From: Naegleria gruberi
Lineage: Eukaryota
Reading direction: 5' to 3' (one strand)
Assembly: GCA_000004985.1 (NCBI GenBank)
Contig: GG738853.1
Length of the DNA stretch: 64,000 bases
Shown here one piece after another: positions 5,369-8,030 of the stretch. Position numbers and translations under genes: made by a program. How positions within the stretch are numbered: the first letter of the stretch is position 1; every line of letters starts with the position of its first letter. Below the pieces are notes generated by a model. That model was not told where the DNA came from and did no database searches. It saw only the letters and a program-made list of their open reading frames with translations.

Positions 5369-8030
5369 ATGCTGTCAACCAAGCTTTCACTAGCCTTCAT
5401 CCTCGCTAGTTTATTGACCTTGAGTTTATTCTGCTCTTGGTCTTTGAGAGTTGTCAACGGTCAACAAGTTTCCAAGTTGACAGTTAGAGAAATTTTCTCT
5501 CCAAGTGCTGATAGTGAATTATGGTTGAATCACGAATATGCCTTGGAAATGGCTCACCATCCAATGTTTGATGACCATTTGGAAAGTGTTTTGGCTGATT
5601 TGGATGGTTTCGAATTCGATGTCGAATCTGATGAAGTTTTATTAGAATACATGAATAGTTTATCTGATGCTGATGCCAAATTCTTCAGAAGAGCCTTCAG
5701 AGGAATCGGTAGAGCCTTCAGAGGTATTGGAAAAGGAATCAGAAGAGTTGGAAGAGTCTTCAGAGGAGTTGGAAAGGGTTTAGCCAAAATTGGAAAGGGT
5801 AAGTCAATGATGAGAATTTTCACACAAAATGTGTTAACAATTTTACTTTTGTTGTTGTTGTTATGGATATATTGTTGTGGAATTTCTTATATTGCATAGG
5901 TGTTGGAAAGTTCATTAAAAAGTATGGTAAAATCATTCTTCCAGTTGCCTTGACATTTGCAACTGGTGGTTTGGGTGGTTTTTCATTGGCTGGTTCATTG
6001 GGAGGTACTTTGGCTAAGGGTGCTGCCTTGTTGAGTAAGGTTAGTGCAATTGCTTCTAAGGGTAATGCTATTTTGAATGGATTGAATTTGGTTACTGGTA
6101 TGTGTGTCTTGTTTCTATTTCTTGAATTTTAACACAAATTGTAAAATTTATTGTAAAATTTATTGTAAAATATTGGACTGATTGAAGGTGGTAAATCAAA
6201 GCTCCTTGGTAAGGTTTTGAATTTCACAAATAAGGTTACAGGTGTTTTGGGTAAGGGCTCAATGCTTTTGGGTGCTGGTAATTCATTGGTTGGTGGACTT
6301 TCTAATTTCAGTTTGAAGAATATTGCCTCTCAATTGAAACCAAGCGAATTGTTCAAGGGATCAACTTTATTCGAAAAGGGATCAAACTTTTTGAATAAGG
6401 CCTCTGGATTGATTCAAAAAGGACAAGATTTTACATCTAAATTGAACACCTTAACAGGTAAGTATATAATCCTTTGTCTATTTTTCAATAATCATCATAA
6501 TGTTGACGAAACGAAACAGGTGGCAAGATTAAGATCTTGAACAAGATTTCAAATACCTTGGATAAGGCTCAATCATTTGCTGGAATTGGTACTGATGCAT
6601 TGAAGGGATTGAATGGTGGTTGGAATTCTTTGAAGAACTTGAATTTGAAGAATCTTGACATGAAGAGTTTATTGACAACTGAAAATATCAAGAAGGGTTT
6701 GTCAAGACTCGATTCTACCATTTCCAAGACTCAAGACATTGTTTCTCGTATCAATGACGTTACTGGTGGTAAGAGCAAGTCTCTCAACAATATCTTGAAC
6801 GTTTTGAATAAGGGTCAACAAATTGTTGGTGTTGGTAATACTGCAATTGACAGATTTTCTGATATTAAGGGTGCTGTTTCTAATTTGAAGAATTTGAAGA
6901 ATATTGACATGAAGAAATTGTTCACTGTTGATGGAATTCAAAACAGCTTGTCAAAGCTTGATAATACCTTGGGTAAGAGCAAGGAATTCCTCTCTCAAAT
7001 TAATGACATTAGTGGTAAGTAGTAGTGTTGTGTTTATTTTCGTGTTGATCGATAATATTTAATTTTCTTGAACTCGTGTCATATTTCAGGTGGTAAGAGC
7101 AAGGCCTTGAATAACATTATTCAAAAATTAGAAAAGGGTCAACAAGCTGTTGGTATTGGATCAACAGTTGTTGATCAATACAGTGGTATTAAATCATCCA
7201 TTGATCAATTGTCTAGTTTGAAGCAAAATGATTTGAAGAAACTCTTAACTTTTGATAATATTCAAAATGGTTTGGGTAAATTGAATGGTGCTTTGGCTGG
7301 TGGTGAAAAGTTGGCCACTCAACTCAATGAATTCACCAATGGTAGAAGTAAGACTTTGGTTGAATTGATTTCCAAGTTGCAAAAGGGACAAAAGGTTACT
7401 TCTGTCACTTCCTCAATTTTGGATGGAGCTAAGGATGCCAAGGAAAGCATTGAAAAGTTAAAGACCTTGAAGAAGGAAGATTTGAACAAGTTATTGACAG
7501 CTGAAGGTCTTCAATCTGCATTGAATAGAATGGCTACTGCTTTCCAAAAGGGTGAACATATTGCTTCTCAATTGAATGAAGTTACCGATGGAAAGAATAA
7601 GGGTTTGACCAACTTGTTATCTGCTCTTCAAAAGGGACAAGCTCTTGCCAATGCTGGTTCTACCTCAATTGACAAGATTAATGGCATCAAATCAGCTGTT
7701 GAAACCTTAAAGACCATCAATGGCAAGGATTTGTTCACTCAAGCAAATTTGGAAAAGGCCATGGAAGGAATTAGTGCTGTTTATGAAAATGGAAAGGGAT
7801 TAGTTGACCAAGTTAAGGAAGTTAGAAATACCTTCAAGAAGAATGATCAACCAGCTGTTGAAGCTCCATCTAATGAGGAACCATCAGCCAATACTGAAAC
7901 TCCATCAACTGAAACTCCAGCTGAAACTCCAAATAATACTGAAGCTCCACAACCAGACGTTGCTGAACAACCATCTGCTCAAGAAGGAGAAGCTCCACAA
8001 GAAATTGATCCAGCCACCGCTGCAGGATAA
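5369..8030 (+). CDS. secreted protein: signal peptide, acidic pro-region, cationic Gly/Arg-rich AMP-like segment, then about seven ~60-aa tandem repeats; 5 exons (5369-5798, 5900-6097, 6188-6457, 6520-7014, 7090-8030)
   Basis: Hydrophobic N-terminus MLSTKLSLAFILASLLTLSLF, acidic stretch DDHLESVLADLDGFEFDVESDEV, then KFFRRAFRGIGRAFRGIGKGIRRVGRVFRGVGKGLAKIGKG. Four GTAAGT/GTATGT...AG introns of about 63-101 nt each interrupt a GGT (Gly) codon in phase 1. The repeated unit is GGKSK.LNN...KGQQ.VG.G.T..D..S.IK....L..LK..D.KKL.T.D.IQN.L.KL. The C-terminus is a Pro/Glu/Thr-rich tail. Confidence 0.6.

Follow-up and report, generated by a model that had tools for sequence, protein, structure and literature searches.

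A 64,000-nucleotide (nt) stretch of Naegleria gruberi NEG-M DNA (contig GG738853.1 of GenBank assembly GCA_000004985.1), hereafter the window, carries at 5369-8030 on the + strand a gene, NAEGRDRAFT_64326. Judging from its sequence, its 777-amino acid (aa) product is best described as following the theme of acid-masked precursors of cationic peptides, joined here to a large repeat domain that is conserved; it also contains a module with an unexpected look-alike in bacteria. The protein belongs to a family that the database searches place only within the genus Naegleria, including the brain-eating N. fowleri. Our preferred reading, which is tentative and leans on sequence properties and analogy, is that the product may be a membrane-active protein that is secreted or delivered to granules or phagosomes, serves in defence or feeding and bears a head resembling cecropin.

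Joining of open reading frames through GT..AG introns produced five exons on the + strand (5369-5798, 5900-6097, 6188-6457, 6520-7014 and 7090-8030) with a spliced frame open over 777 codons. An exact-sequence look-up showed that every residue of the spliced product matched XP_002680524.1 (EFC47780.1, NAEGRDRAFT_64326, UniProt D2V666), which carries the database name 'predicted protein' and nothing more. The gene model was already annotated and hence is not new; its function is unannotated and its family is uncharacterised. The surrounding window was AT-rich with a GC content of about 33-37%, and the introns were short. A metagenome contig (L006) was 99% identical to positions 6405-9576 of the window. 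Within the coding sequence (6405-8030) it showed three synonymous and no non-synonymous differences, and in introns 3 and 4 it showed insertions or deletions (indels) of 1, 3 and 9 nt and approximately 10 substitutions. The N. fowleri orthologue was uninterrupted at the sites of N. gruberi introns 2-4 and aligned there without gaps to the spliced N. gruberi protein. The splice model is thus independently supported, since the indels and most of the substitutions of L006 fall in introns 3-4 and the N. fowleri protein is continuous across introns 2-4. Overall, the sequence comparisons indicate a real gene under purifying selection. The parts of the coding region are as follows.

5369-5461, + strand: predicted signal peptide, aa 1-31 (MLSTKLSLAFILASLLTLSLFCSWSLRVVNG then QQ), from sequence heuristics
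5462-5677, + strand: acidic pro-region, aa 32-103, net charge -16, from charge count and conservation in 8 Naegleria sequences
5678-5798, + strand: first part of the cationic amphipathic segment, aa 104-143 and the first base of codon 144, from charge and helical moment
5688-5774, + strand: 21-nt coding tandem repeat, 4.1 copies with 75% matches, from Tandem Repeats Finder (TRF)
5900-5931, + strand: last part of the cationic segment, remainder of codon 144 and aa 145-154, from the splice model, charge and helical moment
5932-6097, + strand: Gly-rich hydrophobic 'glycine-zipper-like' segment and linker helix, aa 155-209 (IILPVALTFATGGLGGFSLAGSLGGTLAKGAALL...), from conservation and hydrophobicity
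6188-6457 (exon 3), + strand: repeat R1, aa 210-299 (90 aa), 70% and 61% identical to the orthologues
6520-7014 (exon 4), + strand: repeats R2 (aa 300-381) and R3 (aa 382-464), from repeat alignment
7090-7844 (first part of exon 5), + strand: repeats R4 (aa 465-547), R5 (aa 548-630) and R6 (aa 631-716), from repeat alignment
7845-8030, + strand: acidic Pro/Thr/Glu-rich tail, aa 717-777, net charge -14, and stop codon, from charge count; predicted disordered with a predicted local distance difference test score (pLDDT) of about 29

In a word-indexed search of 5.8 billion proteins, the matches were limited to the N. fowleri protein and one metagenome fragment of Naegleria-like sequence. The HMMER profile search of 1.84 billion representatives produced 15 matches. 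Of these, 12 were of Naegleria type, either proteins or exon fragments, and represented at least five or six lineages; one further match was spurious and two were bacterial. The match considered spurious (P0020, 493 aa, Gly/His-rich) resembled the family only through an 'EVTGGKSK' motif. Searches of Pfam, NCBIfam and PDB sequences showed nothing above threshold for the protein, its N-terminal module or its repeats. The N. fowleri orthologue was identified as FDP41_007167 (locus L002), a protein of 637 aa with a fused or truncated repeat unit. Another orthologue, of 767 aa after splicing and about 53% identical, was found in a second metagenomic Naegleria species (L001). Two Naegleria lineages are present in ENA sample ERZ929261, namely L006, which is 99% identical to the NEG-M strain, and the L001 species. 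The architecture was kept in N. fowleri and in the L001 species, the third Naegleria species compared, at only 40-53% identity. The most conserved parts were the Gly-rich segment with its linker, R1 and R2 (70-71% identity to the L001 species and 55-61% to N. fowleri) and the least conserved were R6 and the tail.

The sequence-only reading had proposed the layout of an antimicrobial peptide (AMP) precursor, with a signal peptide, an acidic pro-piece and a cationic amphipathic peptide. This layout, the signal peptide being a prediction, was present in the translation, where the proposed acidic stretch corresponds to aa 68-94 and the cationic stretch to aa 104-144, and it was kept in N. fowleri and the third Naegleria species. 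The core of the predicted signal peptide reached up to 2.0 in a Kyte-Doolittle 19-mer, with a Hessa-scale sum of <= 0. Its predicted cleavage site showed small residues at -3/-1 (V-N-G in N. gruberi, A-F-A in N. fowleri) and the QQ after the site was kept in the orthologues; the signal-peptide features were conserved in 8 orthologous Naegleria sequences. The acidic pro-region carried the conserved motifs HP.FD.HL..VLAD and E.D..L.Y(M/I).(S/T)LSD, and its junction with the cationic segment (...SLSDADA|KFFRR) was variable among orthologues. A simple helix-on-helix masking by the pro-region was considered; the amphipathicity of this region was not significant, and by this measure such masking is unsupported.

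The cationic segment (aa 104-155) had a net charge of +18, 13 Gly residues and six 7-residue units. Its helical hydrophobic moment (muH) was 0.83 over 52 residues, with a sharp maximum at 100 degrees and values of <0.3 at other angles. Shuffles of the segment gave a muH of 0.18 +/- 0.09 and none of 5000 attained 0.83, which lies about 7 standard deviations above them; the cationic segments of two orthologues reached 0.82 and 0.88. On the same scale the values were 0.46 for magainin 2, 0.56 for LL-37 and 0.28 for cecropin A, these comparison sequences being the analyst's own choice, and the segment is physico-chemically more AMP-like than the classical AMPs. In the AlphaFold2 (AF2) model, aa 100-152 were helical at low confidence. 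The heptads, R/K-x-[FIV]-R/K-G-[IV]-G, are encoded by the 21-nt repeat at 5688-5774. The cationic region of N. gruberi was about 21-25 residues (approximately three heptads) longer than those of the L001 species and N. fowleri. Since the 21-nt copy number differs between Naegleria species, the length of the predicted helix appears to evolve by repeat expansion and contraction.

The Gly-rich segment with its linker was among the best-conserved blocks, with 71% identity to the L001 species and 59% to N. fowleri. GxxxG pairs were seen and conserved in TGGLGGFSLAGSLGG, and no Pfam Gly-zipper family matched at E values up to 1. This segment bears on whether the product is secreted or is a type I membrane protein in which aa 155-178 spans the membrane, with the head on the lumenal or exterior side and the 590-residue repeat domain acting as a cytosolic vesicle or cortex scaffold. 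Such an anchor would agree with the strong conservation of the segment, with the Lys residues that follow it and with a Kyte-Doolittle 19-mer mean of 1.69 at aa 155-173, which is borderline for a transmembrane helix. In a crude Hessa-scale sum, however, the best window gave +3 to +6 kcal/mol in three orthologues compared to <= 0 for the signal peptide core. The segment is therefore not a predicted stop-transfer or translocon-integrated helix, and the chain would be fully translocated instead of anchored. A type I topology would also leave the +18 segment just N-terminal of the helix on the non-cytosolic side, against the established positive-inside rule, and a Gly-Ala-Pro break was found in the middle of the segment in the orthologues. 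A type I membrane protein thus appears improbable.

The region after the linker had previously been read as about seven repeats of some 60 aa. Alignment showed six repeats of 82-90 aa (about 83), starting at aa 210, 300, 382, 465, 548 and 631, with a pairwise identity of 18-48% and a summed net charge of +31 over aa 210-716. The most conserved repeat feature was an invariant (T/S)-G-G-K-S-K motif at the repeat starts. AF2 was run on the full length with 4 sequences and on two repeats with a 13-row alignment padded by staggered internal repeats, and both models showed helices of about 38, 7 and 28 residues per repeat at a pLDDT of about 50. Three repeats (R3, R4 and R5) were tested for amphipathicity, and in each of them it was present in the second long helix (p = 0.005-0.015) but not in the first.

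The invariant motif can be counted for a polyprotein precursor, as the sequence-only reading had suggested, which would be cut at each T-G-G-K-S-K to release the cationic peptide and six helical-hairpin peptides of about 83 aa. To our knowledge, however, G-G-K-S-K is no known convertase site. The divergence of the repeats and the fused or truncated unit of N. fowleri are also unlike the near-identical peptides of typical polyproteins, and spacer peptides are absent. We consider a polyprotein very improbable, despite the precedent that Naegleria makes pore-forming peptides (naegleriapores) from pre-pro-multipeptide precursors (PMC6723116).

The helical repeats can also be read as those of a lipid or sterol carrier akin to the exchangeable apolipoproteins, or of a coat on lipid surfaces, in which secreted amphipathic helical repeats bind and shuttle lipid. 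Weak perilipin matches in 2 of 13 repeat windows and the amphipathic second helix of the all-helical repeats point in this direction. The first long helix, however, is not amphipathic, no apolipoprotein or perilipin family matched the protein significantly and the acid-masked +18 head would be left unexplained. This is the least probable of the readings considered.

The bulk of the mass lies in the repeats and in a mucin-like acidic tail, and R1-R2 are conserved as well as the head. These observations would suit a structural secreted protein of the cyst wall, surface coat, adhesive or matrix, in which repeats and tail self-assemble or bind polysaccharide or surfaces and the head serves as a binding or cross-linking segment. 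The lack of processing sites and a weak, sub-threshold resemblance of the repeats to surface-binding HsbA and perilipin can be counted for the same reading, although these matches remain below cut-off. A matrix protein, however, would not be expected to combine extreme amphipathicity with an acidic partner that balances the charge and a hydrophobic Gly-rich segment next to it, and the gene is single-copy with a modest repeat number. A structural protein is therefore judged unlikely; if it were a matrix or cyst protein, the gene would be an ordinary lineage-specific orphan. At the end of the tail, the C-terminus (D/E)P(A/S)(T/A)A(A/M)G at 8007-8027 was kept in all three species, with the rest of the tail poorly conserved, and this conserved C-terminus may be a sorting or modification signal of some kind.

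Among the 1.84 billion sequences, the only non-Naegleria proteins with the N-terminal module were bacterial. The bacterial match P0021 is a member of a family that comprises at least 2,460 clusters from Bacteroidota, Actinomycetota, Myxococcota, Proteobacteria and others, all of which are named 'hypothetical'. Its consensus starts with MHDIDRT, followed by an E/Y/F-rich acidic stretch, EEMELAAELL..DE.EL.QFLGKL.KKAGR... and KKALPIAG.A.G..FGGPAGGAIGGKLAS; the remainder consists of LELEGLSPEDQEFEV..RFVRFAG and then the C-terminal SGRWIRRGRKIIL. Alignment of the bacterial profile with the Naegleria N-termini by hhalign gave a probability of 96% (E = 3.9e-9) over 46 columns, with the Gly-rich segment as the core of the match and the end of the cationic stretch included. 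With hmmsearch, the bacterial profile scored 26.4 bits for N. fowleri, 12.8 for the L001 species and 10.3 for N. gruberi, with high bias. The profile was colinear over approximately 93 positions of the N. fowleri protein, running from the acidic helix across the cationic stretch and on through the Gly-rich segment, with 'EEMELAAELL..DE.EL.QFLG' aligned to the acidic pro-region. Local shuffles attained the real score in 0 of 1000 cases for N. fowleri, 2 of 1000 for the L001 species and 5 of 1000 for N. gruberi, and block-reversed and fully reversed controls scored <= 4 bits.

The bacterial and Naegleria proteins thus have in common an acidic helix, a cationic amphipathic stretch and a K-x-x-LP-[IV]-A...GG.G..G..GG..A segment. 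They differ in that the bacterial proteins have neither a signal peptide nor the 83-aa repeats, and the Naegleria proteins lack the MHDIDRT start, the LELEGLSPEDQEFEV..RFVRFAG motif and the SGRWIRRGRKIIL C-terminus; the alignment of the bacterial profile stops at position 131-132 of 226. Some longer members of the bacterial family carry Pfam TRI4_N (PF23135), which did not match the Naegleria N-termini at E values up to 10, and a literature search on the meaning of 'TRI4_N' returned fungal trichothecene papers or nothing. The likeness was taken to reflect a shared module, whether by homology or by striking convergence, without counting the Naegleria proteins as members of the family. In addition, a second, small bacterial family (P0022-like, from Bacteroidota) showed the same acidic/cationic/Gly-rich module.

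At three bacterial loci (L003 8001-11647, L004 10001-16637 and L005 10001-15768, reached via P0027, P0090 and P0116) the family gene heads a conserved cluster. It is followed by two Pfam-less proteins of about 410 and 530-640 aa and then by Amidohydro_2 in two genomes and an aminotransferase in the third. One cluster genome has a trypsin-like protein and one (L005) a peptidoglycan (PG)-binding/DUF2272 protein. A sigma-54 activator lies just downstream on the opposite strand in all three clusters and a LytTR regulator lies upstream in one. The P0022-type gene (L007 8001-15984, via P0146) has a LytTR regulator upstream and a Peptidase_S8 + DUF2272 + PG_binding_1 protein of 1,564 aa downstream. 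Across the four loci, a protease (trypsin-like or S8) was found in two and a PG-binding/DUF2272 protein in two, one gene being both, together with sigma-54 activators in three and LytTR proteins in two. This gene context is compatible with a processed, envelope-directed product. Neither Pfam nor PADLOC gave an assignment for the operon neighbours, and PADLOC and PDB sequences gave no match to the family.

It is possible, though doubtful, that the Naegleria module is homologous to the bacterial core and was acquired horizontally, with a signal peptide added and a fusion to helical repeats. If so, self-neutralised modules that attack membranes would form a class spanning kingdoms, and N. fowleri and related species would possess a new effector that is not a saposin. 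The likeness offers a testable case of bacterium-to-protist module transfer against convergence, and its order-specific nature gives a bacterial 'dark' family of thousands its first functional hypothesis.

The following mechanism builds on the anatomy and conservation observed above, and each of its functional steps is drawn from sequence properties and analogy. The predicted signal peptide would direct the protein into the endoplasmic reticulum, and with a Gly-rich segment that appears, from the crude calculation, too weak to act as a stop-transfer anchor, the whole chain would be translocated. In storage, the -16 pro-region and possibly the -14 tail may neutralise the +18 helix, as charge balance and the analogy of anionic AMP pro-pieces suggest. 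Upon proteolysis or contact with anionic lipid, the amphipathic cationic helix of 50 residues could bind the target membrane, and the Pro-hinged, Gly/Ala-rich hydrophobic segment would then insert in a helix-hinge-helix manner as in cecropin. From their conservation, the six Lys-rich helical-hairpin repeats, especially R1-R2, may be a membrane- or surface-binding or oligomerising scaffold and not spacers. The likely use would be the killing or permeabilising of ingested bacteria or other target cells.

The preferred reading of a membrane-active defence or feeding protein draws on a gene that appears real and under purifying selection, a conserved architecture, the charge series -16/+18/-14 and the extreme muH. 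It also draws on a Gly-rich segment that would not be translocon-integrated, a single Cys (position 22) that lies within the signal peptide, and an all-helical prediction. Further support is taken from the same module in the bacterial family, with its protease and envelope context, and from the naegleriapore precedent (PMC6723116).

Several observations weigh against it. No conserved dibasic or other recognisable cleavage site was found at either edge of the cationic segment in the orthologues compared, and this segment, although its character is kept, is the part whose length is least conserved. The simple picture of a released 40-aa peptide is argued against, since the Gly-rich segment and R1-R2 are best conserved and the cationic peptide is not. 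Approximately 570 of the 746 mature residues belong to repeats and tail without an assigned role. The signal-peptide and membrane-helix calls are heuristic. The AF2 models were all-helical with low pLDDT (46 and 50) and are unreliable, and a Foldseek search against the PDB returned only generic helical bundles at E > 0.7, so that no fold was assigned. Finally, searches for the gene, protein and UniProt identifiers in full-text literature, in supplements of Naegleria omics papers and in one secretome table returned no mention of them, and data on expression, secretion, processing or activity were found neither for NAEGRDRAFT_64326 nor for FDP41_007167.

Should the head be membrane-active, Heterolobosea would gain their first described family of antimicrobial or cytolytic effectors that are not saposins. 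FDP41_007167 would then be a candidate for phagosomal bacterial killing or target-cell damage by N. fowleri, a lethal pathogen.

One apparently significant match proved to be a false lead. PHROG 788 ('tail protein') matched the N. fowleri protein (P0009) at aa 366-481 with E = 9e-9, and 9 of 13 two-repeat windows matched as well. Long helical, periodic sequence rich in Gly, Lys, Asn and Gln is indeed a likeness to phage tail proteins. A phage-tail or tape-measure origin was rejected, as the reversed sequence scored 26.8 bits against PHROG 788 compared to 25.7 for the real one and shuffles did not match; a tblastn search of 50,697 phage genomes also gave no match. The PHROG 788 match is an artefact of periodicity and composition and not homology, and it serves as a caution that periodic helical sequences can yield apparently significant profile matches.

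The four introns of the gene were located as follows.

5799-5899, + strand: intron 1, 101 nt, phase 1, GTAAGT..AG, splitting the GGT of Gly144; from the splice model and the match to XP_002680524.1
6098-6187, + strand: intron 2, 90 nt, phase 1, holding a 12-nt tandem repeat; position common to the L001 species, absent in N. fowleri
6458-6519, + strand: intron 3, 62 nt, phase 1; common to the L001 species, with an indel and substitutions in L006
7015-7089, + strand: intron 4, 75 nt, phase 1; N. gruberi only, absent in the L001 species and N. fowleri, with 3-nt and 9-nt indels in L006

All four interrupt a Gly GGT codon in phase 1, as had been read from the sequence. The accompanying claim of TG|GK-type boundaries throughout held for introns 2, 3 and 4 (T/S-G|G-K), which fall at the first Gly of the (T/S)-G-G-K-S/I-K motif opening R1, R2 and R4, respectively, and failed for intron 1, which lies inside the cationic segment at K-G|V-G-K. 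Of the five inter-repeat boundaries, only three were counted as intron-bearing. Four phase-1 introns out of four would occur by chance in about 1% of cases if phases were equally likely. The excess is modest evidence, since G|GT is the expected junction anyway in Gly-rich coding sequence. Exons 2, 3 and 4 (198, 270 and 495 nt) are each phase-symmetric (1-1). Exon 3 coincides exactly with R1, whereas R2 and R3 share exon 4 and R4-R6 lie together with the tail in exon 5, so that R1 alone is a single exon and a rule of one exon per repeat fails. The L001 species has three phase-1 introns, at the start of R1, at the start of R2 and inside the Gly-rich segment, two of them common to N. gruberi. The N. 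fowleri orthologue has one intron of 217 nt in phase 0, inside the cationic segment, and none at repeat boundaries. From these comparisons, intron positions appear fluid within the genus. The suggestion that exons were free to duplicate or shuffle is thus weakly supported, given this fluidity, the multi-repeat exons 4 and 5 and the single phase-0 intron of N. fowleri. An intronic tandem repeat, earlier placed at 6140-6172, was present at 6138-6171 (12 nt, 2.8 copies, 100% matches by TRF). It had been taken as a hint of ongoing unequal crossing-over, a suggestion that is likewise weak, as this intronic repeat is irrelevant to the coding repeats; the variation in length actually seen was that of the 21-nt coding repeat of the cationic segment.

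The neighbouring genes were the following.

4109-5131, + strand: NAEGRDRAFT_64325, upstream neighbour, arrestin N+C domain protein without introns
8164-8799, - strand: NAEGRDRAFT_64327, downstream neighbour, 'predicted protein' with multiple hydrophobic segments

Neither showed an evident functional tie to NAEGRDRAFT_64326. Elsewhere in the window, 42001-46000 and 52001-56000 showed strong local AT- and GC-skew excursions (AT skew -0.19, +0.17 and +0.23), which suggests long genes of biased composition.

Among known systems, the precursors of linear cationic alpha-helical AMPs are alike in their signal peptide, charge-balancing anionic pro-region, cationic amphipathic helix and Gly-rich 'GIGK/GLAK'-type sequence. 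They are unlike in that there is no sequence homology and the Naegleria protein has no conserved processing site. The predicted Naegleria helix also differs from AMPs in its length of about 50 residues, its +18 charge and its heptad build, and it is followed by approximately 620 residues of repeats and tail that are equally or better conserved. A 50-residue heptad helix that appears to grow in steps of 21 nt, and whose charge is matched by an acidic stretch elsewhere in its own chain, is an unusual design for AMPs. Cecropin, which has a helix-hinge-helix design, is alike in its amphipathic cationic helix, Pro-containing hinge and hydrophobic Ala/Gly/Val helix. The saposin fold carries six conserved cysteines per unit. 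Membership of the naegleriapore/SAPLIP family was rejected on the single Cys of the Naegleria protein and the lack of a SapB or other Pfam match; naegleriapores, in contrast, are Cys-rich peptides of saposin fold. Naegleriapores are nevertheless alike in that they come from the same genus, are made as a secretory precursor with iterated units and would share the presumed role of killing ingested bacteria or lysing target cells (PMC6723116).

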